From Deltaproteobacteria bacterium (GTDB lineage: Bacteria > Desulfobacterota > Binatia > Binatales > Binataceae), in NCBI GenBank assembly GCA_021827495.1, contig JAKAVN010000003.1, positions 766-64,765 of the forward strand: a DNA stretch of 64,000 nt, given 5' to 3'. Shown here piece after piece: positions 22,578 through 48,934 of this stretch; the stretch's first letter is position 1; each line of letters opens with the position of its first letter. The notes below the pieces were generated by a model. That model saw only the letters and a program-made list of their open reading frames with translations, ran no database searches and was not told where the DNA came from. Position numbers and translations under genes: made by a program.

Positions 22578-25130
22578 TCATAGCGCGCAGACGGCCTCTC
22601 GTACTTGGCCGGCAAGCGCCGCGTAATCCTCGCCCCTCAAATTCAATGGCTTGCCGAAGCTGACTGAACCCGGCCCGGGATGAACCATCCGTGAATCGCG
22701 GTGGAGCACGCGGTCGAGTCCTCGTAGGCGGACCGGCACGACGGGGACCCGAAGCCGGGCGGCAATCAGTGCAACTCCCGGCTGGAACGGCTTGATCTCG
22801 CCGGACTCGGTTCGTTCGCCCTCCGGGTAGATCAGGACCGACCATCCTTCGCTTGCCAGGTCGCCGATGTGGCGTAGGGTTTGCCTGATTCCCGCTTCGT
22901 GTTGCGGGATCGGAAAGCCGTTAAAAAACAGCGTCGCGAGGTAATAAGTCAGGCTGTTACTGAGCCAGCGCAGCCGCGAGTACTGGTGCGGATAAAAATG
23001 CGCGTCGAAGAACTCCTTCAGCATCGCCGGCGCGATGGAATAGCGCCAACGCGCGGGAAGCGCGGCGAAGATCGCGGCAGTGTCCAGATGGCTCTGATGG
23101 TTGGCCGCAAAGACCACCGGTCCCTCAAGGGACTCGAGTTCTTCCAGGCCGGTGACAGACATACGGACACACAGCCGGGTCAGCGGAAGGAACAACCCGG
23201 CCAGCGTCGCCCGCCGAACCAGCCCGGCGAGCGCGTTTCGATTCCAGTTGATAAACTCGATCGGTTCTCTCGGTTCGGCGCTTCCGGCAGGGCGTGATAC
23301 CTGCCTGCTCAGATCCGCGACGGTGGTGGCTTCCGTAAATCGGGCCTCGTCGATCGCGACATTAAAGGACTGCTCCAGCTCGACCATGAGTTCGACCCGC
23401 TCTAGCGAGCTCAAGCCGATTTCCTGGAGCGTCGTCTCAGGCATGATGGTCCGATCGGGCGCGTAGTTTTTGACGAGAGCCGTGATTTGGTCGTCCAGCG
23501 AGGGAGATGGTGGCGGCGGCCCTCCCGCGTCCACCCATTGCTGTATCGCGCGCCGCCTAAGCTTGCCGGTCCCCGCGGTACGCGGCAGCTTGCCGCCGGT
23601 CCATACCGATACGCTGCGGATCTTCTGATGATCGTCCAGCCGGGCGTTGGCGAGTCTCACGACTTCTTCCTTGTCGGCCCCCGGCTTGAGAACAAGCACG
23701 GCATGGACCCGGCCCCTGCCAACCACCGCCGCGTCGATCACGCCCGGTATCTGACCGAGCACGAGTTCCACGTCTTCGGGAAAGACCTTGAGGCCCTCCG
23801 GCGTGACGATCACTTCGCTTTTGCGGCCGCGAACGTAAAGATAGTGCTGGTCGTCCAACTTGCCGATATCGCCGGTATGGAACCAGCCGCCCTCGAAAGC
23901 ACTTGCGGTTTCGGCGGGCGCGTTGAGATAGCCCGGCGTCACGATGTCGCCGCGGACCAGGATTTCGCCGTCAGGGGCGATCTTCACCTCGACTCCGGTC
24001 AGCGGTTTGCCCACACTCCCGCGCCGGCCATGGAAGGGGTGATTGAAGCTGATGATCGGCGCGGTTTCGGTTAGCCCATATCCTTGAACCACGAGGAAGC
24101 CGAGGCGCGACCAGAATTCTTCCAGCTCGGCTTCGAGCGGAGCGCCGCCCACCACGAAGCCCCAGAACTTCAGCCCGAAGTGGCAATGCACTTTCCGGTA
24201 ACGCCACCATCGCAATAGCCAGTGGGATTCGCCGCCTGACGGATGAGCGGTTTCCGGCGCCAGCCTGACGACATACTGACGCAAGAGGTCGAGCATCTTT
24301 GGCACCGAGACGAGGAAAGACACTCGCCGCTTGCGGATCTGCCGCGCGATTTCCTGCGGGTTGTAACTGTGCACCATCACGACCACGCCCGGCAGCATCG
24401 GCGGAAAGAACGTGGCCAGCGCTTGGCCGAACATGTGGCTGAGCGGAAGCAGGTTGAGAAAGCGCAAAGGAAACGCCGGGCGCACGTATTTGCGATAGCG
24501 TAAGACTTCGCGCTCGATCGGAAGCAGGTCGGCCGCGATGTTGCGGTGCGTGATGACAACGCCTTTTGGCGCCGCGGTCGAGCCGGAAGTAAACACGAAT
24601 TCCGCCGGGTCGTCCGGACGGATTTGCGCGACGCGGGGCGAAACCGGCGCGGCGGCCATGTCGAGATCGGCAAGTCGCCAAATGACCGGCAGGCCGGCCC
24701 CTGCGGAGGAGGCCGCGACATCATCGCCAACCAGGAGGAGCCGCGCGTGGACGATCTCCTGGATGTGGCGGACAACTTCCGGCGAGGCCCGGTAGTCGAC
24801 AGGAACAACCACGACGCCCTCGAGCACGCAGCCCCAAAAGGCGACCAGCCACTGCGGGCGGCTCTCCGACCACAATAGAACCCGCTCGCCCTTGTGTACG
24901 GATTCGCCGCGCAGCCGCTCCGCGAAGGCGCCCGCCGCGCGGGCAATCTGCCGGTATTGGTAGCACCGGGTGCGATACCCGTCGTCGTGGATCACGAACT
25001 CATCGGAGAGCCCGGCAAAGCCGTCGAATATATCGACGAGCGTTCGGTGTGAGGCGCCCGAATCATCGCGAGCGGCGCCCGGTTCCGCGGCTGCCGAAGC
25101 TGGCGCGGTGGAATCGACACGACACGACAT
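22578..25130 (-). CDS. tri-domain protein: adenylate-forming fatty-acid ligase + acyl carrier domain + PlsC/LPLAT acyltransferase
   Basis: AMP-binding cores FTSGSTAAPKGV, GYGLTET, GDIGKLDDQHYLYVRGRKSEVI and GTGKLRR. Carrier domain IGLSSLERVEL. Acyltransferase motifs NHQSHLDT (Hx4D) and IYPEGERT. Confidence 0.85.
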   Translation of the reverse strand: MSCRVDSTAPASAAAEPGAARDDSGASHRTLVDIFDGFAGLSDEFVIHDDGYRTRCYQYRQIARAAGAFAERLRGESVHKGERVLLWSESRPQWLVAFWGCVLEGVVVVPVDYRASPEVVRHIQEIVHARLLLVGDDVAASSAGAGLPVIWRLADLDMAAAPVSPRVAQIRPDDPAEFVFTSGSTAAPKGVVITHRNIAADLLPIEREVLRYRKYVRPAFPLRFLNLLPLSHMFGQALATFFPPMLPGVVVMVHSYNPQEIARQIRKRRVSFLVSVPKMLDLLRQYVVRLAPETAHPSGGESHWLLRWWRYRKVHCHFGLKFWGFVVGGAPLEAELEEFWSRLGFLVVQGYGLTETAPIISFNHPFHGRRGSVGKPLTGVEVKIAPDGEILVRGDIVTPGYLNAPAETASAFEGGWFHTGDIGKLDDQHYLYVRGRKSEVIVTPEGLKVFPEDVELVLGQIPGVIDAAVVGRGRVHAVLVLKPGADKEEVVRLANARLDDHQKIRSVSVWTGGKLPRTAGTGKLRRRAIQQWVDAGGPPPPSPSLDDQITALVKNYAPDRTIMPETTLQEIGLSSLERVELMVELEQSFNVAIDEARFTEATTVADLSRQVSRPAGSAEPREPIEFINWNRNALAGLVRRATLAGLFLPLTRLCVRMSVTGLEELESLEGPVVFAANHQSHLDTAAIFAALPARWRYSIAPAMLKEFFDAHFYPHQYSRLRWLSNSLTYYLATLFFNGFPIPQHEAGIRQTLRHIGDLASEGWSVLIYPEGERTESGEIKPFQPGVALIAARLRVPVVPVRLRGLDRVLHRDSRMVHPGPGSVSFGKPLNLRGEDYAALAGQVREAVCAL

Positions 25131-27185: not shown

Positions 27186-27968
27186 TTACTTGTCGAGCGT
27201 CGAGCCCAACTGCTGCACCTTCTTCTGCAGCATGCTCACGAGCGCCGGGTAGCCGTCGTTGTTGAGCACGCGGTTGAACTGGTTGCGGTAGTTGGCCATC
27301 ACGCTGATCGCGTCAATATCGAGGTCGTAGATTTTCCACTCCGCGCCGTCGCGCTTGAGCAGATAGTCGACTTTGATCGGCGGGGGCTGGTCCTTCAGCA
27401 ACACGCTGCTATGGACCTCGGCATAGCCGGCGCCGTTGTACTGCTGTCCGGTGAAGCTGACGTTGGAAGTGTTCACGTTCTGGCGGATTTTCTGCACGCT
27501 GTAGTCCCGCATCTTGCTCAGGTAGACGTTCTCCATGAAGGAGGTGAACAGCGGGACGAATTGGGCCTGCTGCTGTGGCGTGATCTGGCGCCAATGGTAG
27601 CCCAGCGTGGTGCGCGCCATGTCGGCGAAGTCGAAGTTGGCCTCCGCGATCTCACGCAGCTTCTTGTTGCGCTCGGCGGTCGGCGTCTGGGTGTCGCGCA
27701 CCACCGCAGTGGTCTGGTCGATAACCGCCTTGACCATCGCCGTCGGGTCGCCTGCCGTCACCGCGGCGGAGGCCGCCGCCTGGGCGCGCGCCGGCTCCGG
27801 CATGAGCGCTACGGCGGCGGCGCAAAGCGCGCCGGCAAGAAAGATTGCGCCCGCGAGCCCTTGGCTGATGACGGCGCGGCGTTTGACCGATGCGCCACAA
27901 TCGCGGCCGCCCACGCGGCCTGGTTGGCTGGTAAGGTGTGAATTAAACATCGCGTATAAATAATCCAT
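27186..27968 (-). CDS. MlaC/Ttg2D-family phospholipid-binding periplasmic protein
   Basis: Signal peptide, then the toluene-tolerance Ttg2D pattern (FDFADMARTTLGYHWRQITPQQQAQFVPLF ... WKIYDLDIDAISVMANYRNQF). Confidence 0.8.
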   Translation of the reverse strand: MDYLYAMFNSHLTSQPGRVGGRDCGASVKRRAVISQGLAGAIFLAGALCAAAVALMPEPARAQAAASAAVTAGDPTAMVKAVIDQTTAVVRDTQTPTAERNKKLREIAEANFDFADMARTTLGYHWRQITPQQQAQFVPLFTSFMENVYLSKMRDYSVQKIRQNVNTSNVSFTGQQYNGAGYAEVHSSVLLKDQPPPIKVDYLLKRDGAEWKIYDLDIDAISVMANYRNQFNRVLNNDGYPALVSMLQKKVQQLGSTLDK

Positions 27969-28067
27969 CAGTTGCCATTATCGCCGCTCGCGCCGGGCAT
28001 TAAAATAAGCCCGGCAACTTGAATGGCCGGCTGTGCTAAGCGTCCGAATAGGCTACGCTATTTTGCT

Positions 28068-28940
28068 ATGCACAAGCGCGTGCTTTACGCGGCGGACCCG
28101 CGCTGGGCCGCGATGGCCGAGCGGCTCGACCTGCTCATGGCGGACAGTGGCTTTCGTACGCTCAAGGACGAGGCCCGCACGCGCGCCGGCTTGCTCAAGG
28201 GGCCCGACGGCGTGTTGGTTTTCGTCAAACGCGTGCGCACCGGCTCCTGGGCGAGGGGGCTGGTCGCCGCCGCGCGCGGTTCGCAGGTCAGGCGATGGCT
28301 CGATGGAGCCGCGATGCTCGCGGCGGCGGGCTTCAATCGTCCTGCGCCGCTGGCCGCGCTGGAGGTGCACCGCGCGGGCGTGGTGAGCGAGTGCTACCTG
28401 CTCTGCGAGGCGCTGCACGATGCGACCGTGCTCAGCGGCGCGGCGCTGGGAGGCGGGACGGTGCATTTTCGCTCCCGCCGGACGCTGCTCAGCGCCGTGG
28501 CGCGCGAGGTTCGCCGGCTGCATGACGCGGGGCTTTACACGCTTGATCTGCAGGAGACCAACCTGATGGTGGAGGAGCGCGGCGCTGCGCCGCCCCGGAT
28601 AAGCTTCGTCGACCTGGAGGATTTCCGCCGGGTGCGCATGGTCTCCTGGCACAGAAGGCTGCTCAATCTCGTTCATCTCGACCGCAGTATCGGACGCTTC
28701 CTTAATCGTCCCACGCGGCTGCGCTTTTTTTACGAGTATCTCGGCGCGGCCGCGCTCGGCCGGAATGAGCGGCGGCGGATCGTCCTCCAGTTCTGGCAAC
28801 TGCGCGACGGGCTCGAGCGCCGCCGCCGCGCGCGCGCGCCACGCATCGCGGCCGCGACGCTGGAGACGGTGGCCGGCTGCGCGCGTGGCGCGGCGCCGGC
28901 CGCAGCGGACAAGCTGGCGCCGCCGCCGCGCGGCAACTGA
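28068..28940 (+). CDS. lipopolysaccharide kinase (Kdo/WaaP) family protein
   Basis: Track ORF trimmed to ATG 28068. RTLKDEARTRAGLL, VFVKRV, LHDAGLYTLDLQETNLMV and FVDLEDF resemble the InaA/Kdo-kinase family. Confidence 0.7.
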   Translation: MHKRVLYAADPRWAAMAERLDLLMADSGFRTLKDEARTRAGLLKGPDGVLVFVKRVRTGSWARGLVAAARGSQVRRWLDGAAMLAAAGFNRPAPLAALEVHRAGVVSECYLLCEALHDATVLSGAALGGGTVHFRSRRTLLSAVAREVRRLHDAGLYTLDLQETNLMVEERGAAPPRISFVDLEDFRRVRMVSWHRRLLNLVHLDRSIGRFLNRPTRLRFFYEYLGAAALGRNERRRIVLQFWQLRDGLERRRRARAPRIAAATLETVAGCARGAAPAAADKLAPPPRGN

Positions 28941-29865: not shown

Positions 29866-31248
29866 GTGAGTGAGCAAGCTGGGTTGACCTCCTCGGATCG
29901 CGTGGCGGTTGCTTCGCCGCCGCTGCCGCGCCAGATGGCATGGGAGACGGCGGCATCGGCGTGGCATTCGACGCGGTTGTTCGCGTTCGTTCTGGTAGTG
30001 ATCGCGATCGTCGTCGGCGCGCACATGCGCTTCCACCGCTTGGCGCGCTTCGACATGAGTGGTGACGAGGGAGCGTCTTGGGCCGCCGCGTCCGCGCCCA
30101 GCGCGCAGCAGGTGGCTAAGATAGAGCGGCGGCTCGATCCCGGCAAGCTCGCGCTCTATGACGAGATGCTGCACGAATGGATTGGGGTCTTCGGCGACAG
30201 CGTGTTCGCGCTGCGCGCGATGTCGGCCGCCTTGGGAACCATTGCTATAGTTCTGGTCTTCGTCGCCGTGCGTGAGGTCTGCCGTTCGCTGGTTGACGAG
30301 TCGGCTGCCGCGATTGGTGAGCTGGCGGGCGCCTTCGCTGCGCTCCTGTATGCCACCAATCTTGAGATGGTGCTGTCGGACCGCATAGCGAGGATGTATC
30401 CGCTCGTGATGTGCGCGGAGCTTTTGCAGATCACATTTTTTGTTCGCGCCCAGCGTCGCGGTGGGATGTTAAACTACGCCGGTATCGCACTTTTCACAGC
30501 CGCGATGGTCGCCAGTAACTTTACTTCAATATTTCTGATGGCAGCGGAAGCGTTGTGGCTCGGCTGGCTGCCGCTCGCGACGCTCTGGGATGCGCAGTCG
30601 CGACGGCTGGCAGTGCTCCGTCCCGGCTGCGCGCTGGCCGCAGGAATCGCGACCCTTCTGTCTTGGCTGCCCGCCGCGTTTGCTTTATCGCGAGGCGCGG
30701 TGAAAAGGGGCTGGATCGACTGGATCAGGCTACAGCCTATCTCCTGGCCGTACACGACGCTGCGTAACTCGACAGGCGACGATGTGCTGTTCTGGATCTT
30801 TGTGGCGCTCGCCACCTTCGGTGTTTGGCGGCAACGGCGTTCGGCGAGACTGGTTGTGGAGTTCGTCGCTCTGTGGACGGGTGGCCCAATCCTGGCGGTG
30901 ATGGCGGTGACCTATCTCATCCACCCGCTGGAGTTTCCGCGCTACGTACTTATTTCGTTCGTCGGTATGTTCGCCTTCGCCGCGTTGGGCGCCGCATCGC
31001 TGCGCTCCGCCGCGTTGCGCATCGTGCTGGCAATACTTCTCATATCTCTCTCCGTGGGTCCGGTGCATTTCCGGGTGAGGCATTCTGATGCGGCCGCTTG
31101 GCGCGGCGCGACGCTGTTGGCAGTCCAACTAACCACGCGGGGAGAACAGGTCGCGGTAGTCCCACCTTATTGCATCAACGTGGTGCGTTTCTACATGCCG
31201 CCCCAGCGCCGCGCCGCCGCCGTCGGGATGAAGCATAAATGCAGCTAG
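29866..31248 (+). CDS. GT-C fold membrane glycosyltransferase (PMT_2 / ArnT-like), paralog 1, ending at an apparently premature TAG
   Basis: Multi-TM protein with FHRLARFDMSGDEGASW (first-loop DE motif). About 55-60% identical by eye to the next gene. The start could instead be ATG 29935. Confidence 0.75.
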   Translation: MSEQAGLTSSDRVAVASPPLPRQMAWETAASAWHSTRLFAFVLVVIAIVVGAHMRFHRLARFDMSGDEGASWAAASAPSAQQVAKIERRLDPGKLALYDEMLHEWIGVFGDSVFALRAMSAALGTIAIVLVFVAVREVCRSLVDESAAAIGELAGAFAALLYATNLEMVLSDRIARMYPLVMCAELLQITFFVRAQRRGGMLNYAGIALFTAAMVASNFTSIFLMAAEALWLGWLPLATLWDAQSRRLAVLRPGCALAAGIATLLSWLPAAFALSRGAVKRGWIDWIRLQPISWPYTTLRNSTGDDVLFWIFVALATFGVWRQRRSARLVVEFVALWTGGPILAVMAVTYLIHPLEFPRYVLISFVGMFAFAALGAASLRSAALRIVLAILLISLSVGPVHFRVRHSDAAAWRGATLLAVQLTTRGEQVAVVPPYCINVVRFYMPPQRRAAAVGMKHKCS

Positions 31249-31362
31249 GCGCCGGTGTTGATCCTCAGAAGTTTTGCTCCGCCCCAACAGATCGCGGCTG
31301 CGGAGGCGTGCTACCCACAGGTGATCGCGAAACTGACGAAGGTCGAGGTACGTGCGCGCTGA
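31249..31362 (+). other. in-frame continuation after the TAG of GT-C paralog 1, homologous to the C-terminal tail of paralog 2
   Basis: 37 sense codons (APVLILRSFAPPQQIAAAEACYPQVIAKLTKVEVRAR) then TGA at 31360-31362. They align to RAPVLILSGWGIVSNEEIAMAQACYPRVLAHLNRVEVRAR of paralog 2. Confidence 0.7.
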
Positions 31363-32857
31363 GCTTGGAGTGAATTCGGAACGCGTTATCGTCGCTTCGC
31401 CACTGCAGTCGTCGCGCCCAACGATGTGGGACGCGGCACGATCGGCCTGGCGCTCGCCGCGGCTGTTCGCTGCCGTGGTGCTCACGCTCGCGGTCATTCT
31501 TGGCGGCTTCTATCGTTTCCATCGGCTCGCCCGCTGGGACATGAACGGAGATGAGGGAACCGCGTGGGCGGCGGTGGTTAAGCCGACTCTGCGCCAGGTG
31601 GCGGCGACGTTCTGGCTGCTTGAGAATGGCGGCAAGTTCCCGCTCTATGACATTCTGCTGCACGAATGGGTCCGGGTTTTCGGCGACAGCCTGTTCGCGC
31701 TGCGCGCGATGTCGGCCGCGCTGGGCACGATCGCGATCGTGCTGCTGTTCCTCGCGGTGAGCGAAATTTGTCGCTCGCTGGGCGGCGAAGCGTCCGCCGA
31801 AGCAGGCGAGGTGGGCGGCGCGTTCGCCGCTCTTATCTATGCGCTGAACCTCACGATGGTGCTGTCGGACCGCACGGCGCGGGAGTTTCCCTTGCTGACC
31901 GTGGCGGAGCTGGCGCAAATAATTTTTTTCGTGCGCGCGCAACGCCGCGCCACCTGGGTGGACTACCTTGGAATCGCGGTCTTTACCGCGATGATACTCC
32001 CCATCAACTACACCGCGAGTTTCCTGCTGTTCGCCGAAGCGCTATGGCTCGGCGGCCTGCTGCTGGCCAAATGGGCGGGGTCGGCGCGCGCCGGCGCGGC
32101 CGCGATCTTTCGTCCGGGTATCGCGGTGATGGCCGGTATCGCACTGCTTGCGCCGCTGCTGCCTGGGGTGTTCGTCTCTTCACGTGGAGCCATACAGACG
32201 GGCGCAGTCCGCTGGATAAAATTGCAGCCGATCTCTTGGCCGTTCACGGTGCTGCGCGACGTGGCCGGCAGGCCCGCGCTGTTCCGGATCTTTGCCGCCT
32301 TGATCGCATTCGGCGTATGGCGGCAATGGCGCTCGGCGCGCCTGGCCTCGGGATTTCTGGCGGCCTGGATGCTGGGGCCGGTGCTGGCGGTATTCCTGGT
32401 GACCTACCTGATCGAGCCGATGGAATTTCCACGCTACGTGCTGATCGCTTTCGTCGGCATGTTCGCCTTTGCCGGTTTCGGCGCGGGCGCTGTGCGCAGC
32501 ACCGCCGTGCGCATCCTGCTCGCCGTGCTGATCGTGCACCTGTCGGCGCCGGTGTTACACAACTCGCTCAAGGTCTTGCGCGAGGGCGCCTGGCGCGAAG
32601 CGACCGCCGTGGCCGACCAGGCCGCGGCCGGCGATCAAATCGCGGTCTGCCCGTCGTTCAAGCTGAGCGTGGTGCGCTTCTATCTGCCGCCCGAGCGCCG
32701 CGCCGCCGCCGTCGGGATGGAGGATAAGTGCAGCCGGGCGCCGGTGTTGATCCTCAGCGGATGGGGGATTGTCTCGAATGAAGAGATCGCAATGGCGCAG
32801 GCGTGTTACCCGCGCGTGCTCGCACACCTCAACCGGGTTGAGGTACGCGCGCGCTGA
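31352..32857 (+). CDS. GT-C fold membrane glycosyltransferase (PMT_2 / ArnT-like), paralog 2
   Basis: FHRLARWDMNGDEGTAW motif and a multi-TM body. Start is uncertain: GTG 31352 from the track or ATG 31424. Confidence 0.8.
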   Translation: MRAELGVNSERVIVASPLQSSRPTMWDAARSAWRSPRLFAAVVLTLAVILGGFYRFHRLARWDMNGDEGTAWAAVVKPTLRQVAATFWLLENGGKFPLYDILLHEWVRVFGDSLFALRAMSAALGTIAIVLLFLAVSEICRSLGGEASAEAGEVGGAFAALIYALNLTMVLSDRTAREFPLLTVAELAQIIFFVRAQRRATWVDYLGIAVFTAMILPINYTASFLLFAEALWLGGLLLAKWAGSARAGAAAIFRPGIAVMAGIALLAPLLPGVFVSSRGAIQTGAVRWIKLQPISWPFTVLRDVAGRPALFRIFAALIAFGVWRQWRSARLASGFLAAWMLGPVLAVFLVTYLIEPMEFPRYVLIAFVGMFAFAGFGAGAVRSTAVRILLAVLIVHLSAPVLHNSLKVLREGAWREATAVADQAAAGDQIAVCPSFKLSVVRFYLPPERRAAAVGMEDKCSRAPVLILSGWGIVSNEEIAMAQACYPRVLAHLNRVEVRAR

Positions 32858-32914
32858 ACTCGCGGCTCGCCGCGGGCGGACTTTCATTCCGTGAGCGAGA
32901 TCGAGGGGCCTTAT

Positions 32915-33733
32915 TCACCCGCGCTTCGCTGGACCAGGCCGGGAGCGCGGCGCGGCAGCCGTATCGTAGCGGGCAAGCTTGCACAGCCGCTCGTAGAGCC
33001 GGACCATCCGGCGCGGCACCGCGGCGCCCGCCCGCGAGCGGTTAAGCTCGGCCGCCGCGAACCCGCGATCGATTCTGACCCCGAGCCGGCGCTCCAGTTC
33101 CGCGTCCGCCGAATGATCGAGCAACTGGTCGTAATGGACGAAGAGCCAGTCGCCACCCTGCGCATAATGCACGTCCAGGATGCGGCGGTACATCGCCTCC
33201 CACACCTTGAGCCCCCAGCGCGCATCGACCGCCAGATTTTTCATGTAGCCGGCGCTGCCGCACTCGCGGACGATGCTCGACGCGGTGACGCTGGGGCCGC
33301 GGAAGACGCACAGCAACAGCGCGTCACCGATATGGGGCCGCCACGCCGGCAGGGTATACGACAAGCGCGGGTCCTTGAGACAGAACGGCTGATGCGCGGT
33401 CACCGCCGCGATCCGCTTGCTCATCGCGGGCGGGCACGGAATCGACACGCCGGGGCGCAGCACCGCGACCCAGTGCTGCAAATCGCCGAGCACCGGAACC
33501 TCGCCGAAGAGCAACCTGCGCAGCGCGTGCGGCGGCGACTTCGCTGACACGGACGCGATCAGCTCGTCGTTGATCTGGTTGACCTCGCGGTCTTCGAACT
33601 GGCCCTTGGGATTGCCCTCGTTGGCCGGCCAAATCTCTTCGCCCATGAAATAGCCGGCCTGGGCCAGGAGTCCGGCCGTCATGCTGGTGCCGCTGCGGCC
33701 CGAGCCCAGGATCAGGCAGTTGCGCTGCTTCAT
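32915..33733 (-). CDS. sulfotransferase family protein (A)
   Basis: P-loop-like 5'-PSB LILGSGRSGTSM and CLKDPRLSYTL (3'-PB-like); 272 aa. Confidence 0.8.
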   Translation of the reverse strand: MKQRNCLILGSGRSGTSMTAGLLAQAGYFMGEEIWPANEGNPKGQFEDREVNQINDELIASVSAKSPPHALRRLLFGEVPVLGDLQHWVAVLRPGVSIPCPPAMSKRIAAVTAHQPFCLKDPRLSYTLPAWRPHIGDALLLCVFRGPSVTASSIVRECGSAGYMKNLAVDARWGLKVWEAMYRRILDVHYAQGGDWLFVHYDQLLDHSADAELERRLGVRIDRGFAAAELNRSRAGAAVPRRMVRLYERLCKLARYDTAAAPRSRPGPAKRG

Positions 33734-33742
33734 CGCGCGACC

Positions 33743-34843
33743 CTAATAGAGCGCGAGCGGCGCTCGGCCGGCGAGCAATTCTTCGGCGAAGCCGGCATGG
33801 CTTGGTGGCGGGGGCGGGATCTCGAGCAGGCCCCTGCGGCGCATCGCTTCAAGCGCCGCTCGATGCGGCATCAGCGAGTACCACGCCCTAAGCACATCAT
33901 GGCGATCTACGGCCGGAGCCTTCCCGTTGGAAACTGAGGCCGGCCCGTTTCTAAAAATCGCGCGAAGCTGATGGCGCAGGCCCGGTGGTGTGAGGCCGGG
34001 CTGATAGCGCAGCACGCAGAACAACGCGCGCCGCGCCTCGCGCATCTCGCCCGCTTCCAGGCAGCGCAAGCCCTTGACCGTCAACAACCAGCGGTACAGC
34101 GCCGCGCAGCGCCGCGCCAGCTTGTCGCCCGGCTCGCCGTAGCGCTTGCGCACGCGCTCGGCGAACACGCCAAAGCCGGGCGCGTACTTGCGCATCCGTT
34201 CGACCAACGGCGTCAGCCGGTAGCGCACCAGTGGTTCGGGCACAAAGGCGAAGTCGCCCAGCTCGCGCAATAAAAACCACAACTCCGCGTCGTCGAAGCC
34301 GCCGGCGCCCCGAAATTTCTCCGTTTGGCCGCCGACCCGGTTGAAGGCCCAGCGATGGATGGTCACGGTGCTGGGCAGAATCGGCCACCATCCCTCCTCC
34401 AGCAGGTCTTCCATCAGCGGCGGCCGCGCCATGCCGGGATGCAAATAGGTCGGCGCCAGCGTGGCGCCGTTGTCGTCGACCGGCACCACGTCGGAAAACG
34501 CCAGGGTCGTGGTCGGATGGCTTTGCAGGGCCTCCACCGTTTTGCTCAGGCGTTCCGGCAGCCATACGTCGTCGGCATCCAGAAAGGCCAGGTAGCGGCC
34601 CTGCGCGCGGTCGACGGCGCGGTTGCGCGCCGCGGCGAGCCCGCGATTTCTCTTGCGGCGGATCACCCTGATGCGGTCGCCGTAGCGGGCCAGCACGCGG
34701 GGCGTGGAGTCGCGCGAGGCGTCGTCGACGACGATCAACTCGAAGCTCTCGAATTGCTGCGCGAGCACGCTGTCGATCGCGCGTGCGACGTACCGCTCGC
34801 CGTTGTAAACAGCGATTATCGCCGAGACCAGTGGCGCCGCCAT
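33743..34843 (-). CDS. family 2 glycosyltransferase
   Basis: SAIIAVYNGERYV, LIVVDDASRD, NRGLAAARN, FLDADD. Confidence 0.85.
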   Translation of the reverse strand: MAAPLVSAIIAVYNGERYVARAIDSVLAQQFESFELIVVDDASRDSTPRVLARYGDRIRVIRRKRNRGLAAARNRAVDRAQGRYLAFLDADDVWLPERLSKTVEALQSHPTTTLAFSDVVPVDDNGATLAPTYLHPGMARPPLMEDLLEEGWWPILPSTVTIHRWAFNRVGGQTEKFRGAGGFDDAELWFLLRELGDFAFVPEPLVRYRLTPLVERMRKYAPGFGVFAERVRKRYGEPGDKLARRCAALYRWLLTVKGLRCLEAGEMREARRALFCVLRYQPGLTPPGLRHQLRAIFRNGPASVSNGKAPAVDRHDVLRAWYSLMPHRAALEAMRRRGLLEIPPPPPSHAGFAEELLAGRAPLALY

Positions 34844-34867
34844 CTCAAGCCGACGAACCCGGACGCG

Positions 34868-36745
34868 CTAGCTGTTCACCGCGCCGCGCGCGGGCTCTTC
34901 GCCGTCTTCGGGCATGTAGAATTGCAGGTCGCACAGCTTGCGATACGCGCCGTCGCGCGCGAGCAGTTCGTCGTGCGTGCCCTCTTCTACGATCTCGCCG
35001 CTGACGATCACGAAGATGCGGTCGACGCGGCGCACGGTGGAAAGCCGATGCGCGATCGTCAGAGTGGTCCGGTTCTCCATCAGCCGCTCAATCGCGTCCT
35101 GGACCACACGCTCGCCCTCGGAGTCGAGGTTCGAGGTCGGCTCGTCGAGGATCAGGATCGGCGCGTTCTTGAGCAGCGCCCGCGCGATCGCAAGCCGCTG
35201 GCGCTCGCCGCCCGACAGCCGCACCCCGAGCTCGCCCACCAGGGTGTCGTAGCCGTTGGGCAGGCGCGTGATGAAGTCGTGGGCGTTGGCGGCCTTGGCG
35301 GCGGCCACAATCTCGTCGAAGTTCCTGGTTCCGCTGCCGTAGGCGATATTGGCGCGCACCGTGTCGTTGAACAGAAAAGTGTGCTGCGAGACCAGCCCGA
35401 TCTGCGAGCGCAACGATTTGAGCGAATAGCGCCGGGCGTCGACTCCGTCGACCAGCATCGCGCCCTGCTCGGGATCATAGAAGCGGAGGATCAGGTCCGA
35501 GAGCGTCGATTTGCCGCCGCCGCTCATCCCCACCAGCGCCACGGTCTGGCCCGCGCCGATCTTGAGGTTGATGTTGCGCAGCACCCACTCGCCCTGCGGA
35601 TTGTAGCGGAAGTTGACCTTGCGGAACTCGATGTCGTGCGGGCCGGGCTTGAGTTCGATTGAGCCCGGCGCGTCATAGATCTCGGGCGGATGATCGATTA
35701 TCGCGAAGACGCGCTCGGCCGACACCAGCCCCTGCTGGATCGAGTTGTTGGTGCCCGCGATGGTCTTGAACGGCCGGTAGATGATCAGCATCGCGCCGAT
35801 GAAGGCCGCAAACGTGCCGGGCGTGCGGCTTCCCGCGAGCACGGCGGTGACCCCGTACCACAGCACCGCGACGACTCCGAACGCTCCCAGGACTTCGATC
35901 ACCGGGCTGCTGACGGCGCCGACGCGCAGCACACGGCGCAGGATGCGAAGCTGGCGGCCGAGCTGGGTGCGGAAGCGTTCGCACTCGTATTCCTCCATCC
36001 CGAACGCCTTGACCACGCGGCATCCCTGCACCGCCTCCTGCATCAGCACCGAGAGGTCGCTCAGTTTTTTCTGTGCCTCCTTGGACATCTTGCGCACGCG
36101 CTTGGCGATCCCGATGATCGGCAGGACCGCGACCGGAAACACCACGAACGCCAGGATCGCGAACTGCCAGTCCATGTAGAACAGGCCGCCCACCAAGGCG
36201 ATCAGGGTGAAGCTCTGGCCGACCAGCGAGAAGAGCGTGTTGGTGATGATCGAGGAAGCGAGCTGCACATCGCTCAGCGCGCGCGTGAGCAGGCCGCCGG
36301 TCGGCGTCCAGTTGAAAAACGAGAGCGGCAGGCGCTGCAGGCGGTCGTTGAACTCGCTCCGCAGGTCCATCGCCGTCTTCATCCCGATATAGCTGGTCAG
36401 GAAACTGGCGGCGAAGTCGCTCAGCGCGCGCACCACGAATACGCAGAGGATTTCGAGGCTCAGAATATGCAGCCGGTGTACCGCGTGGCCTGAAAGGCCG
36501 GTTGTCCCCTTAAGCGCGGTCAGGGCGTTGATCGTCTCCTTGATGAGGTAGGGGATCGCGCCGTTGGCGGCCCCGAGCGCCAGCATCGCGGCGACCGCCA
36601 TCACCAGATCGGGAAACAGATACGGCCGCGCATAGCGCAGCAGGCGCAGGTAGGTGTTCATGTACCGGCTGGCGTCCTGCTCGCCCGCCACCGGGCGCCA
36701 CCACAGCAAGGTCTCGCTGATCGTGCGCCACAACTTGGTGCTCAT
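34868..36745 (-). CDS. ABC exporter, fused permease/ATPase (MsbA-like)
   Basis: Six-TM domain, Walker [10 protein letters not shown], signature LSGGERQR, Walker [13 protein letters not shown]. Confidence 0.9.
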
Positions 36746-36868
36746 CGGTTCCTTGCGCGCCGCTCGTGGCGCGACTTTACGGCTTCGCCCGCGCGCTCCG
36801 CCCGGAGGGCGCGCGGCCTGCGATCACTTTGATACATCGTGGCCCGGTCCGAAACCGGGCATTTCAGT

Positions 36869-37831
36869 CTAGCGGAAATAGTTCTCAAGCTCAGGCTTCG
36901 TGCGGCCGCCGCGGACGATACGCCCGCTGAGCGCGCGCACCATCGTCATCGGCAGGAACGTGCGCAGCCAGCGCGATGCGGCGCGAAGCTGAAACGGCCC
37001 ATAGCGCATCGCACAGGCGAACGCCTGTCGCGCGCGCAGCTTGTCGCCGTCGCGCAAGGCGACCAGTCCCGCATAGCCCCAGGCCGAGACGAAGGCATTG
37101 CTGGACTCGCGGATGAGCCGCTGGCCGGCCGCGCCGTAACGCTCCGACACCAGCCGCCCGAAAATCCGGTAGCCCTTGGCGTACTTCAACATCCGCTCCA
37201 TCGGCGGAGTGGTGCGATACCTCACCAGGCGCTGCGGCACGTAAGCGAAATCGCCCTGCTCGCGCATCACCAGCCACATGTACGGGTCCTCGAAGCCGGG
37301 CCTGGTGAAGCTCTCGTCAAACCCGCCCGCGCGCTCAAACGCGCTGCGGCGCATCACCGCCGCGCTGGTCAGAATTGGCCACCATCGCGTCAGCAGCTCC
37401 TCCATCGAGGGCGCGTGCGCGGAGCACTCGTCGATGAACTTGACGTCGAGCTCGTGATCGTAGTCGTCCACCGGGACAATGTCGCAAAACGCAAGCGACA
37501 GCGTCCGGGCCGCATCCAACTCGGCCGTCATGGTCTTGAGCATCGCCGGCAGCAACACATCGTCGGCATCGAGGAAGGTGAAGTACCCGGACTCTAGGCT
37601 GGCGGCTGCAGCGCCGGCGTTGCGCGCGGCGGAGGGGCCGCGGTTACGCTGGCGCACGACCTTTATCTGGCCGCCGTAAGAGCCCAGGATGCGAGGCGTC
37701 GCATCGGTCGAACCGTCGTCGACCACGATCACCTCGGGCCGTTCGCCCTCCTGCCCGAGCGCGCTGTCGATGGTTCGCCGGATGGTGGCGACGCCATTGC
37801 GCACCGGGATAATAACTGAGACTCGGCTCAT
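36869..37831 (-). CDS. family 2 glycosyltransferase (paralog of 33743..34843)
   Basis: Track ORF trimmed to ATG 37829-37831. VSVIIPVRNG, VIVVDDGSTD, NRGPSAARN, FLDADD. The C-terminal half parallels the other GT2 (WWPIL ... GDFAYVPQRLVRYR). Confidence 0.85.
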   Translation of the reverse strand: MSRVSVIIPVRNGVATIRRTIDSALGQEGERPEVIVVDDGSTDATPRILGSYGGQIKVVRQRNRGPSAARNAGAAAASLESGYFTFLDADDVLLPAMLKTMTAELDAARTLSLAFCDIVPVDDYDHELDVKFIDECSAHAPSMEELLTRWWPILTSAAVMRRSAFERAGGFDESFTRPGFEDPYMWLVMREQGDFAYVPQRLVRYRTTPPMERMLKYAKGYRIFGRLVSERYGAAGQRLIRESSNAFVSAWGYAGLVALRDGDKLRARQAFACAMRYGPFQLRAASRWLRTFLPMTMVRALSGRIVRGGRTKPELENYFR

Positions 37832-37904
37832 AGCCACATAATTATCATTTCGACGCGGTTGCAACCAATAACGCGCGTCGGCGCCAAAACGACGCTATTT
37901 TCCC

Positions 37905-38786
37905 TCAAAGCCGTGCCGCCAATCGCTCGCCGCCCTTGGACGATGGCAACTTCCAGGCCGACAAGTCGCGCCCGAGGACCGATTCAAGATCCTCGATTTC
38001 AGGCAGCAGCAGCTCTCTCAAGCGCCTGTCAACTGCTGAGTCAAGCGGCGGGTAGGGCTTTCCACCGGTGAAAAAGAGATTCCACAGGGGCGATCCCGCT
38101 TCGAGCAGTCGAGCGAGCCGCCACCGCCGCCGGATGAGTAGGTCGCGGACCTTGCGTATCTGGCGCGCCAGCATCATGCTGCGGGGCTCCTCCTCTGAGC
38201 GATTTACCGGATCGGCGGCGCGCGGCGATCCGCTCAAATCGATGCGCGGGATTCCGATAAAGCCGCATATCGAGTTGATGTAGGCTTGCGGATCGGCTCG
38301 CAGATCGTCGTACAGCGTCACCAGGACATTGCTTGCGTCGAACATGCTCAGCCAGGCGCGGAGATTCGACGCGTAGCTGGCTGACGCCGCCAGCCGGGTA
38401 CGCTGCGCTTCGTAGTCAAAGGGCCCTTCCACAAGTCCGGCCCGACGCCATGCCTTGTACTGCGAGTAAACACGCTCAATCGGGTCGCGCAAAGAGCAAA
38501 TAATGCGGCACTCGGGGATGATTTCAGCTATGCGCGTACGCGCTTGCGGATGATCAAAGTAGGTGGGCGCGATTTCGCCGAGCGGGAGGTGAGGGGAAGC
38601 CTCGCGGAAGTATGAGAGATACCATTCCAGGCCCAGTTCGTAATTCCACGCAAAGAATTGTGTCTCCTTGATTCCAGACGGTAGGCCGACGTGCCCCGTC
38701 AGAACGCCATGCAGCCAAGTGGTGCCGGTGCGTGGCGGTCCGACCGCGAGAAAGTCGGGCAGTCGTCCCTTCATCGAGGGCAACAT
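37905..38786 (-). CDS. sulfotransferase (B)
   Basis: Track ORF 37905..39488 trimmed to ATG 38784-38786. 5'-PSB VGPPRTGTTWL and 3'-PB SLRDPIERVYSQY. Confidence 0.85.
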   Translation of the reverse strand: MLPSMKGRLPDFLAVGPPRTGTTWLHGVLTGHVGLPSGIKETQFFAWNYELGLEWYLSYFREASPHLPLGEIAPTYFDHPQARTRIAEIIPECRIICSLRDPIERVYSQYKAWRRAGLVEGPFDYEAQRTRLAASASYASNLRAWLSMFDASNVLVTLYDDLRADPQAYINSICGFIGIPRIDLSGSPRAADPVNRSEEEPRSMMLARQIRKVRDLLIRRRWRLARLLEAGSPLWNLFFTGGKPYPPLDSAVDRRLRELLLPEIEDLESVLGRDLSAWKLPSSKGGERLAARL

Positions 38787-38881
38787 TGTAACGTCTTGAG
38801 CCGCCAAATCATACCACCGCCGCGCCGCGCGGCCGTGAAGCCACATGATGAAAAGTGCATCTACGGAAAATCCCCAAAGTG

Positions 38882-39787
38882 TTACATTTCGGCGACTGCG
38901 GAACGCTCCGCGCCACCCGGCCTTTTCCACGCCGACAGGTCGCGCCCCAGCATCTCTTCGAGCGCTTCGACCTCGGGCCGGAAGCGCTCGCGCAAGCGCC
39001 GATCTAGCGCGGGATCGAGCGGACCGAATTCGCCGCCGCCGCGGAAGCTGAAGCGCCATAGGCCGGCCTTGCGCAGCAGCGTGATCGCGGCCCCGGCCTT
39101 GCGCTCCTGGAGCCATCGCCGCAGCCGCCAGGCCTGCTCGGCGAGCAACGCGATGCGCGGGCCGCGCGTGACGCTGTTGACCCGCTTGCCCAGCAGCGGT
39201 GAGCCCGCAAGCGCGATCGGCGCGATCCCGATGAAACCGCAGATCGCATCCAGGAAGCGCTGTGGCTCGCTCTCCAGATCGTCGTAAAGCGCCACCAGCA
39301 CGCGCTCGGCGCCGAACCATTCGCGCCAGCGGCCAAGATAGTGCGCGTAGCGGCTGGCCTCGGTCGCCGGCGTATCGCCTTGCGCCAGTTCCGCCATCGT
39401 CGCCCGCGTCCATCCGTTGTGCCGCATCAGGCGGTAAAACGAGTACAGCCGCTCTACCGGGTCGCGCAGCGTGCAGACGATGCGGCATCCCGGAATATGG
39501 CTTGCGATCCGCTCGGGCGCCTGGGGCGCGGCGAAGTAGTTGGGCGAAATCTCGCCCATCGGGAGAGCCGGCGCGCAGTCGCGGAAGAACTCCAGGTACC
39601 AGTCCAGCCCCTTGGCGTAGTGGGCCGAGAAGAAGTCGGTCTCCTTGGTCTCGCGCGGCAGCCCGACGTGGCCGCCCAGCGCGCGGTAGAGCCAGGTGGT
39701 GCCGGTGCGCGGCGGACCGATGGCGATAAAGCCGGGCAGGCGCAGATCCGCCGCCTGTTTGGGAGTCGCAGCCACGCCGGGTTCCAT
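38882..39787 (-). CDS. sulfotransferase (C), paralog of B
   Basis: IGPPRTGTTWL and TLRDPVERLYSFY. Collinear with B to the C-terminus (MLGRDLSAWK). Confidence 0.85.
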   Translation of the reverse strand: MEPGVAATPKQAADLRLPGFIAIGPPRTGTTWLYRALGGHVGLPRETKETDFFSAHYAKGLDWYLEFFRDCAPALPMGEISPNYFAAPQAPERIASHIPGCRIVCTLRDPVERLYSFYRLMRHNGWTRATMAELAQGDTPATEASRYAHYLGRWREWFGAERVLVALYDDLESEPQRFLDAICGFIGIAPIALAGSPLLGKRVNSVTRGPRIALLAEQAWRLRRWLQERKAGAAITLLRKAGLWRFSFRGGGEFGPLDPALDRRLRERFRPEVEALEEMLGRDLSAWKRPGGAERSAVAEM

Positions 39788-39877: not shown

Positions 39878-40183
39878 TCAAGCGTCAATCAGAATGTCGT
39901 CGCCGTCCACCCGCACCGCGAAGCAGGCGACCTTGACCCCGGGATCGTCGACGGCTTGTCCGTTGGTGACGTCATACTCCCATCCATGCCACGGACATAC
40001 CACCGTCGTACCTATCAGGTCGCCCTCGCCGAGCGGTCCTCCGCGATGGCGGCAGGTGTTGTCGATCGCATACAACTGGCCGCCCGCGTTGAACAGCGCG
40101 ATCTGGCGCCCGCCGATCTCGACCGTCTTGCCGCCGCCGTCGGGAATTTCGCCGCGCCGTGCGGCTTTCACGAAGTTTGCCAC
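39878..40183 (-). CDS. Rieske [2Fe-2S] ferredoxin-like protein (NirD-like)
   Basis: Track ORF trimmed to GTG 40181-40183, with GGAGG 12 nt upstream. CRHRGGPL and CPWHGWEY cluster-binding boxes. Confidence 0.8.
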   Translation of the reverse strand: MANFVKAARRGEIPDGGGKTVEIGGRQIALFNAGGQLYAIDNTCRHRGGPLGEGDLIGTTVVCPWHGWEYDVTNGQAVDDPGVKVACFAVRVDGDDILIDA

Positions 40184-48858: not shown

Positions 48859-48934
48859 TGGCTGGGCGGGAAGGATTCGAACCTTCGAATGCCAGGTCCA
48901 AAGCCTGGTGCCTTACCAGCTTGGCGACCGCCCA
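48859..48934 (-). tRNA. tRNA-Gln (anticodon UUG), CCA encoded
   Basis: Hand-folded cloverleaf: acceptor TGGGCGG/CCGCCCA, anticodon stem CCAGG/CCTGG with loop CTTTGGA, T arm GAAGG-TTCGAAT-CCTTC, discriminator G plus CCA; 76 nt. Confidence 0.9.

Follow-up and report, generated by a model that had tools for sequence, protein, structure and literature searches.

What might be made by a bacterial locus in which three sulfotransferase genes are packed around two glycosyltransferases and an ATP-binding cassette (ABC) half-transporter resembling the lipid A flippase MsbA? The question is raised by a stretch of 64,000 nucleotides (nt) from a Candidatus Binataceae contig, JAKAVN010000003.1 (GC approx. 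66%; 'the window' below always means this whole stretch). Its minus strand carries, in the order of reading, the sulfotransferases SulfC and SulfB, a family 2 glycosyltransferase (GT2b), the ABC protein, a second family 2 glycosyltransferase (GT2a) and the sulfotransferase SulfA, while two membrane proteins of the GT-C type, GTC1 and GTC2, are encoded on the plus strand. An earlier reading of the bare sequence (the original prediction) had assigned these genes to a dedicated pathway for a sulfated glycoconjugate. The interpretation favoured here, which is held with about even confidence, is that in Binataceae it is the lipid A-core itself that receives further sugars and O-sulfate groups in the cytoplasm; an MsbA-type transporter then flips it, and GT-C enzymes, where present, may modify it in the periplasm. 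The conservation of the locus, the nature of the sulfotransferases and the identity of the transporter are the elements on which it is built.

Conservation of the locus among Binataceae

Relatives of the locus were gathered by exact-protein look-ups, by a scan of species-representative genomes with the ABC protein and by a scan of metagenomes with SulfC, and were compared by tblastn; they are referred to by L numbers, and the synteny counts that follow apply to loci with a SulfC counterpart of at least 67% identity and enough flanking sequence. Window proteins are identical to those of the Candidatus Binataceae metagenome-assembled genomes (MAGs) GCA_027321845.1 and GCA_027403275.1, the locus is found in the MAGs GCA_035650475.1 and GCA_037025145.1 as well, and nearly all named homologues carry the Candidatus Binataceae label.

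The conserved order is argJ, a Rieske protein gene, SulfC, further sulfotransferases (zero to two, lying in the SulfC–GT2b interval, which in L008 also holds a methyltransferase), GT2b, the ABC gene and GT2a. The argJ–Rieske–SulfC part is present in every locus with upstream flank (20 metagenome and six MAG loci), and all loci with enough downstream flank (13 of 13 from metagenomes, and the MAG loci L005, L008, L011, L012, L013 and L017) continue with GT2b and, as far as the contig permits, with the ABC gene and GT2a. The minus-strand block, first described from a single sequence, is thus strongly syntenic in relatives. SulfC counterparts (76–87% identity) are always found between the Rieske gene and GT2b. 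In each of the syntenic loci a GT2b counterpart (78–91%) immediately precedes the ABC gene, and GT2a counterparts (72–84%) come immediately after it. In L005, L013, L017, L036 and L038 the counterparts of SulfB (62–67%) are found across the ABC gene from the place that SulfB has in the window, and SulfA follows GT2a in L008, L011, L012, L017, L024, L026, L027, L030, L037, L042 and L051.

The interval between GT2a and the VIT1 gene is a variable slot, which may hold SulfA (in approximately two-thirds of the complete loci), SulfB-type genes, methyltransferases, a 157-amino-acid (aa) protein and zero to two GT-C genes, among which L013 and L017 have canonical PMT_2 proteins. Complete loci have two to four sulfotransferases each, and GT-C genes occur in or near the ABC locus in L011, L013, L015, L016, L017, L024, L026 and L051. 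Most open reading frames (ORFs) of the variable slot in L013 (14800–18300) and L017 (14700–18400) fail the filter on GC content at third codon positions (GC3) that the flanking genes pass; with their canonical PMT_2 GT-C proteins and methyltransferases, these slots are consistent with horizontally exchanged cassettes. Beyond the slot, the gene for a Kdo/WaaP-family kinase is syntenic in L005, L008, L011–L013 and L017, and that for MlaC, a marker of the diderm envelope, is likewise syntenic in relatives.

Gene calls in the window were checked by an ORF listing with the GC3 filter and by family matches. All eight ORFs of the original prediction proved to be real by coding-type GC3 or by a family match, and the six co-directional minus-strand genes and the two plus-strand GT-C genes stand at essentially the positions first proposed for them (table 1); public gene calls place the start of SulfB 12 nt later, at 38774, giving a protein of 289 aa. 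The gaps between the minus-strand genes, from SulfA to SulfC, are 9, 24, 123, 73 and 107 nt (95 nt for the last with the earlier SulfB start). Counts of promoter-like sites (1 against 1.5 expected) and of terminator-like sites (13 against 9.9 expected) are uninformative on the operon structure. The Kdo/WaaP-type kinase and MlaC, which had been noted just beyond the locus, are both there; a VIT1 gene that had been passed over separates the kinase from GTC1, and the Rieske gene between SulfC and argJ had also been missed.

Table 1. Genes of the sulfotransferase–GT2–ABC locus and its immediate surroundings (positions in the window; TMD, transmembrane domain; NBD, nucleotide-binding domain).
Feature	Position	Strand	Matches and remarks
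SulfC	38882-39787	-	Sulfotransfer_3 62.0 bits, Sulfotransfer_1 53.4 bits
SulfB	37905-38774 (originally 38786)	-	Sulfotransfer_1 71.4 bits, Sulfotransfer_3 66.6 bits
GT2b	36869-37831	-	Glycos_transf_2 E 2e-30
MsbA-type ABC half-transporter (TMD + NBD)	34868-36745	-	ABC_membrane + ABC_tran; NCBIfam TIGR02203 564.7 bits
GT2a	33743-34843	-	Glycos_transf_2 E 4e-37
SulfA	32915-33733	-	Sulfotransfer_3 28.1 bits vs cut-off 27
GTC2	31352-32857	+	multi-pass membrane protein; GT-C fold by model
GTC1	29866-31248	+	multi-pass membrane paralogue of GTC2, approx. 8-10 hydrophobic segments
Rieske [2Fe-2S] protein, 101 aa, soluble	39878-40183	-	Pfam Rieske E 7e-22
Kdo/WaaP-family lipopolysaccharide kinase-like protein	28023-28940	+	Pfam PF06293 Kdo 33.8 bits vs cut-off 21.3
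MlaC, periplasmic phospholipid-binding protein	27186-27968	-	Pfam MlaC E 8e-40

Some further features of the window and of its relatives may be recorded here. In all relatives examined the Rieske gene separates argJ from SulfC, with no obvious tie to arginine synthesis or to sulfation. The gene at 22578–25130 (minus strand) encodes a protein of 850 aa in which AMP-binding (fatty acyl-AMP ligase), PP-binding (acyl carrier protein-like) and acyltransferase domains are fused; it is similar to the Aas-type enzymes of lysophospholipid re-acylation and belongs to the same envelope-related neighbourhood. Rfam gave one match for the whole window, a tRNA gene (48862–48934, minus strand; 63.9 bits) that comes shortly before a ribose-phosphate pyrophosphokinase gene, at the start of a stretch of lower GC (approx. 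60–64%, 48–54 kb). Finally, the region 60787–62361 (plus strand) encodes a sensor with ETR1_N (ethylene-receptor-type N-terminal), PAS and HisKA domains that ends at 61866, and a separate ORF at 61909–62361 on the same strand carries HATPase_c, as would result from a split histidine kinase or from a frameshift.

The sulfotransferases and their acceptors

That the locus encodes three proteins of the sulfotransferase fold with intact motifs for the binding of 3'-phosphoadenosine 5'-phosphosulfate (PAPS) is borne out by profile matches, by invariant motif columns and, for SulfA, by a structural model; the motifs originally quoted (GPPRTGTTWL, RDPIERVYS, RDPVERLYS and GSGRSGTSM) are all found. On the choice of family left open at that time, the profiles favour the Sulfotransfer_1 and Sulfotransfer_3 families (cut-offs 22 and 27 bits, SulfA being borderline), and Stf0 (PF09037) gives no match at E <= 0.01 for SulfA, SulfB or SulfC.

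SulfB and SulfC belong to the same family, with 51% identity to each other. SulfC shows the motifs GPPRTGTTW, KETDFF and RDPVERLYS, and in the SulfB/C family at large (n=25, 48–70% identity) GPPRTGTTW (the 5'-phosphosulfate-binding loop, 5'-PSB), KETxFF and RDPxERxYS (the 3'-phosphate-binding motif, 3'-PB) are invariant. The closest relatives of SulfB among solved structures are enzymes of heparan sulfate synthesis, namely the sulfotransferase domain of NDST1 (E 1e-15) and 3-OST-1/3 (the range being E 1e-15 to 1e-11). In the alignment with NDST1, GPPRTGTT falls on GPQKTGTT, KETQFF places its Glu on the second one of FEEIQFF, and the Ser of RVYS meets that of RAYS; the residues concerned, the invariant Arg15, Glu37 and Ser104 of SulfB, presumably correspond to Lys614, Glu642 and Ser712 of NDST1, a numbering that fits the chain offsets. 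On these alignments SulfB and SulfC can be predicted with confidence to be PAPS-type sulfotransferases.

SulfA is different. GSGRSGTS and KDPR are invariant among its 25 homologues. A sequence search of solved structures with SulfA returned only a spurious archaerhodopsin match, and the family profile gave marginal matches to tyrosylprotein sulfotransferases (TPSTs; E 0.02). The AlphaFold model of SulfA (pLDDT 89) has as top Foldseek matches TPST1/2, the sulfotransferase domain of CurM, Stf9, Stf1 and Stf0, the latter being a low-ranked match (E 8e-3). Judged from this model, SulfA has a sulfotransferase fold nearest to those of the TPST and Stf enzymes; its family is divergent and distinct from that of SulfB and SulfC.

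Prediction of transmembrane (TM) segments gave none for SulfA and SulfB, and for SulfC a single hydrophobic stretch (residues 178–200) that falls inside the sulfotransferase domain. Since the three sulfotransferases, like GT2a and GT2b, have no convincing TM segment, the cytoplasm, which also holds PAPS, is the expected site of action of all five.

The statement that such enzymes are uncommon in bacteria holds for characterised ones and fails for the families as such: homologue searches yielded 1074 protein clusters for SulfB and 689 for SulfA, mostly from soil MAGs. Several homologues are embedded in loci of polysaccharide synthesis. In an Acidobacterium (L019) a SulfB homologue of 48% identity and a second copy lie between genes for Wzy_C, a Wzx-type flippase, GT2 and GT4, and a SulfA homologue of 49% identity (L010) belongs to a Wzm/Wzt locus in which four sulfotransferases are accompanied by two members of the sulfatase family. 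One SulfB homologue (L018) stands alone among transposases. The recurrence of sulfotransferase homologues in Wzx/Wzy and Wzm/Wzt loci, along with the closeness of SulfB to the heparan sulfate enzymes, makes a sugar acceptor likely.

The L010 locus (1–20792), which is of the ABC-2 plus Wzt_C type, has at least four sulfotransferases from three Pfam families and several GT2 and GT4 enzymes besides its two sulfatase-family genes, with Peptidase_S74 proteins on the flanks. Arrays of four to five tandem SulfB/C-type genes, approximately 45–48% identical to SulfC, are found on the metagenome contigs L047, L048, L049, L052 and L055, with GT2 genes coming after the array in L047 and L048; such arrays suggest heavily sulfated glycans in other soil lineages. 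An apparent sulfotransferase–GT2 fusion (P0058) was considered as evidence of coupling and left unused, as its contig is full of fragmented genes and the fusion is a probable frameshift artefact.

The transporter, the glycosyltransferases and the probable cargo

MsbA (TIGR02203) is the top model for the ABC protein out of 191 NCBIfam models; the scores with HepA, the glucan exporter and PglK are 437, 359 and 180 bits. When the search was restricted to the TMD, the three best matches were MsbA proteins of V. cholerae and A. baumannii (119–123 bits), with a small margin over TmrAB (111 bits) and Sav1866 (108 bits). In E. coli MsbA the basic residues R78, R148 and K299 hold lipid A; in the TMD alignment the ABC protein has conserved equivalents for R78 and K299 and a Gly in place of R148. 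The MsbA-type assignment of the original prediction is upheld by the best curated model and by the solved structures nearest to the TMD.

The notion of a dedicated exporter fared less well. The ABC protein is 71–84% identical across Binataceae, including loci that have no sulfotransferase. In the more distant Binataceae MAG loci L014–L016 (ABC protein 71% identical) there is neither a sulfotransferase nor the GT2 pair, and the neighbours are methyltransferases and unknown 750-aa proteins, with the ABC gene coming after a GT-C gene in L015 and L016 (a PMT_2 match in L016). As the gene is kept regardless of its neighbours, these comparisons suggest a flippase with a housekeeping role more than an exporter reserved for one pathway; and since the protein is nearest to MsbA among both curated models and solved structures, lipid A-core would be a likelier cargo than a new glycolipid. 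Lipid A-core is further indicated as the substrate because sulfation by soluble enzymes has to precede export, because the sole exporter of the block is of the MsbA type and conserved irrespective of its neighbours, and because the flanks are of the envelope type, with the Kdo/WaaP-family kinase, MlaC and the Aas-like acyltransferase.

The window has a second MsbA-like ABC half-transporter (approx. 1595–3436, minus strand), which is directly downstream of a large GT2 ORF (3382–5844, with the GT2 domain at residues 300–590) and forms with it another glycosyltransferase–exporter pair. It was considered as the true MsbA and rejected on its lower scores (429 vs 565 bits with TIGR02203; 285–311 vs 373–402 bits with solved MsbAs); by the same scores the protein encoded at 34868–36745 is the best MsbA candidate within the window.

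The two GT2 proteins, as originally described, are soluble enzymes with Glycos_transf_2 matches and no TM helix. They are 45% identical to each other and show DxD-type motifs (VVDDAS, VVDDGS and LDADD). Their matches to curated equivalog models cover the N-terminal GT2 domain only and are far below all cut-offs, so that no specificity is assignable. Their candidacy as polyprenyl-phosphate-sugar synthases of the ArnC/GtrB type was rejected, given the lack of a TM helix and scores of only 18–22 bits with the ArnC model.

With these components the following path may be drawn. On the cytoplasmic side of the inner membrane, GT2a and GT2b would extend a lipid-linked glycan with sugars from nucleotide-sugar donors. 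The added sugars would then be O-sulfated with PAPS by SulfC, the constant member of the set, together with one to three partners that vary with the genome (here SulfB and SulfA). The MsbA-type half-transporter would flip the completed, anionic lipid-glycan to the periplasmic side, where GT-C enzymes, in the loci that carry them, may add further residues in the manner of ArnT and the rhizobial Rgt enzymes; genes outside the locus would have to provide the polyprenyl-phosphate sugars for this last step. The extra sulfotransferases, methyltransferases and GT-C proteins of the variable slot would then yield strain-level diversity of surface charge and epitopes. With soluble enzymes and PAPS in the cytoplasm, sulfation must come before export. 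As first proposed, glycosylation and sulfation in the cytoplasm with ABC flipping afterwards is the only order that makes topological sense for sulfotransferases and GT2s without convincing TM segments. Taken as a whole, the locus may be a Binataceae-specific locus for the assembly and decoration of the lipopolysaccharide (LPS) core organised around the MsbA flippase, a view for which the chances appear balanced.

Several observations weigh on the other side. The ABC protein misses the trusted cut-off of TIGR02203 (564.7 vs 602 bits), over its full length it scores about the same with Sav1866 (405.7 bits) as with MsbA (approx. 401 bits), both being half-transporters, and the equivalent of R148 is a Gly. 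Neither the window nor the flanks of the relatives, taken to 10 kb, have an lpx, waaA or kds gene. Co-transcription of the minus-strand genes we infer from the short gaps and the conserved order only. As had been pointed out from the start, PAPS-synthesis genes are missing from the window: none of the cysC, cysD, cysN or cysQ type was detected among the approximately 55 ORFs scanned against Pfam. The locus also has no polyprenyl-phosphate-sugar synthase, that is, no ArnC/GtrB/Ppm1-like GT2 with TM helices, and the idea that such a synthase feeds the GT-C enzymes from within the locus finds no support. Moreover, the acceptor of SulfA might not be a sugar, the folds nearest to its model being protein-tyrosine sulfotransferases. 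It is because the MsbA cut-off is missed, lipid A genes are not adjacent and the operon structure is inferred that confidence in a sulfated lipid A-core goes no further than the middle of the scale.

The alternative that survives best, doubtful as it is, is the model of the original prediction, namely a separate sulfated glycolipid or oligosaccharide, other than lipid A-core, with an ABC exporter of its own and finishing by the GT-C enzymes outside the cytoplasm. The sub-threshold MsbA score, the equal likeness to Sav1866, a multidrug/lipid exporter, the missing R148 equivalent and the lack of adjacent lipid A genes would all suit it, as would the fact that an MsbA-like exporter is paired with a GT2 twice in the window. 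However, the 71%-identical relatives of the ABC protein that lack both GT2 pair and sulfotransferase are unexpected for a dedicated exporter, many loci with the sulfotransferase–GT2–ABC block have no GT-C genes, and no lipid-anchor-forming enzyme is encoded in the locus.

The GT-C proteins bear on this issue and on the next alternative. GTC1 and GTC2 (approx. 460–500 aa) are 57% identical over 457 aa by BLASTP, and neither has a Pfam match at the gathering threshold or anything significant in NCBIfam. With PMT_2, GTC2 reaches 15.7 bits (cut-off 26.1) and GTC1 gives no match; 13 of the 20 members of the family profile touch PMT_2 at E < 1, the best at 1e-6, and the 20-sequence profile found no sequence match among solved structures. 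The family comprises 241 clusters, essentially from Binataceae only, a few members being labelled GT39 or PMT_2 at the source. The AlphaFold model of GTC2 is of moderate confidence (pLDDT 68, pTM 0.72), and nearly all of its top approximately 35 Foldseek matches in the PDB are GT-C enzymes (best TMq 0.42–0.52), including PglB, STT3, Pmt4, ALG12, ALG9, EmbA/B/C, AftB and PimE. GT-C enzymes have their catalytic acidic residues right after the first TM helix; in GTC2 the sequence DMNGDEG comes just after TM1 (residues 36–61), with D63 and D67 at least 90% conserved and E68 invariant. On the basis of the model GTC2 has the GT-C fold, and the assignment is extended to GTC1, since it is 57% identical to the modelled protein. 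Of the original label, 'GT-C' therefore holds at the level of the fold, while 'PMT_2/ArnT-like', below Pfam significance, is a weak lead.

Membership of the GT-C pair in the conserved unit is not borne out by the relatives, as the genes are absent from L005, L008/L009, L012 and L038 and a single paralogue is found in L011, L024 and L051; L011 has the GTC1 type only, and genes of the GTC2 type are found in L013, L024, L026 and L051. GTC1 and GTC2 are accessory genes of the variable slot with a putative link to sulfation. As each type is found singly in other genomes, the pair of the window is no recent tandem duplication. More generally, the idea of a locus built by module duplication gives way to one of old duplications, for the paralogues are 45–57% identical and each has its own counterparts elsewhere at 65–90% identity.

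These data can be set against the proposal of a glycan linked to undecaprenyl pyrophosphate (O-antigen, capsule or protein glycosylation), handled by a PglK/Wzk-like ABC flippase and transferred by the GT-C proteins, which we regard as improbable. PglK and Wzk are themselves MsbA-like half-transporters, the oligosaccharyltransferase PglB comes first among the Foldseek matches of GTC2 (E 1.4e-4, TMq 0.52), and the Wzx/Wzy and Wzm/Wzt loci with homologous sulfotransferases would also fit. On the other hand, the score with the PglK model, whose cut-off is 1000, is just 180 bits, as compared with 565 bits for MsbA, and no initiating phosphoglycosyltransferase, Wzy or WaaL is found in the locus or in its relatives. 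PglB chains are of approximately 700 aa, whereas the GT-C proteins have approximately 480 aa, and in place of the large periplasmic domain of PglB they have a short, poorly modelled C-terminal region of approximately 80–90 aa (mean pLDDT approx. 40–60); what weak sequence signal they give is to PMT_2, that is, to enzymes using monosaccharide-phosphate donors.

That the genes share no product and are just neighbours that stay together, with sulfotransferases working on small molecules, lipids or protein tyrosines and MsbA and the GT2s doing ordinary envelope work, is equally improbable. In its favour, the nearest folds of SulfA are tyrosylprotein sulfotransferases and a polyketide sulfotransferase, the unrelated argJ, Rieske and VIT1 genes are just as syntenic, and the L018 homologue of SulfB stands by itself amid transposases. 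Against it, SulfB and SulfC are nearest to glycosaminoglycan sulfotransferases, both sulfotransferase families recurrently adjoin GT2 or polysaccharide-export genes in unrelated lineages, and sulfotransferases flank both sides of GT2–ABC–GT2 with gaps of 9–107 nt.

A more specific form of the sulfated lipid A-core proposal may be put forward tentatively, and is itself rather unlikely. Sulfate esters, the work of two to four cytoplasmic sulfotransferases that vary from strain to strain, would replace or supplement the phosphates as anionic groups of the inner LPS before flipping, as a phosphate-sparing and strain-variable charge code of the outer membrane; MsbA would then be adapted to sulfated cargo, and the change of R148 to Gly could be part of this adaptation.

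Relation to known systems and significance

To our knowledge, sulfated envelope glycans have been characterised in few bacteria, with rhizobial LPS and K-antigen, marine O-antigens and capsules, cyanobacterial extracellular polysaccharide (EPS) and mycobacterial sulfolipids as the main cases. The LPS sulfotransferase of Sinorhizobium meliloti is LpsS. KpsS, acting on the K-antigen of Mesorhizobium loti, and NodH are further bacterial sulfotransferases that have been described (PMC11625862). Rhizobial LPS and K-antigen sulfation shares with the proposed pathway the PAPS-dependent cytoplasmic sulfation of a Gram-negative surface glycoconjugate before export, but the rhizobial systems have single sulfotransferase genes, whereas Binataceae have two to four per locus, beside msbA and two GT2s. 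Several sulfotransferases within one cluster of glycan biosynthesis are found in the synechan (xss) cluster for cyanobacterial sulfated EPS (PMC8205485) and in the sulfated Vibrio capsule (PMC11641403); such polymers are exported by Wzx/Wzy or capsule systems, in contrast to the Binataceae locus, which has no polymerase and no OPX or PCP protein (outer membrane export and co-polymerase families of polysaccharide secretion), the MsbA-type protein being its only exporter.

At the level of the individual components, SulfB and the heparan sulfate enzymes (NDST and 3-OST) have in common the 5'-PSB loop, the Glu of (E/K)E-x-QFF and the Ser of the 3'-PB motif. They differ in that the Lys of the NDST 5'-PSB is an invariant Arg in the SulfB/C family, whose members are bacterial, soluble and of approximately 290–300 aa, and the acceptor is certainly not heparan sulfate. 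The ABC protein resembles the MsbA proteins of E. coli, Vibrio and Acinetobacter in its half-transporter architecture, in being matched best by them among curated models and by its TMD, and in the R78 and K299 equivalents; unlike them, it scores below the trusted cut-off, has Gly at R148, shows no linkage to lpxK and is flanked by GT2 and sulfotransferase genes. Similarly, the GT-C proteins share with ArnT and the rhizobial RgtA-D a multi-pass GT-C fold, the acidic motif after TM1 and genes located beside msbA or LPS genes, and rgtA and rgtB also occur as tandem paralogues. Unlike the ArnT and Rgt proteins, GTC1 and GTC2 give a very weak PMT_2 signal, do not have ArnT among the top structural matches, lack a nearby ArnC-like synthase and are not conserved together with the sulfation block. 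The full-text searches made here brought up no msbA–GT2 block with embedded sulfotransferases, no arrays of two to four sulfotransferases in one such locus and nothing on envelope sulfation in Binatota; the main genomic paper on the group has no mention of PAPS, LPS or sulfate assimilation.

Beyond the locus itself, the SulfB/C-type enzymes are compact soluble bacterial carbohydrate sulfotransferases related to the heparan sulfate enzymes, and may serve enzymatic sulfation, while the loci, with anything from one to four sulfotransferases, form a natural series for work on specificity. Should the prediction of a sulfated core be wrong, the locus would still be an ordinary, well-conserved envelope glycan cluster. 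If it is true, sulfotransferases would be wired to the lipid A-core flippase throughout a lineage of uncultured, globally distributed soil bacteria, and the prediction that follows, and that can be tested, is that Binataceae have a sulfated LPS core.

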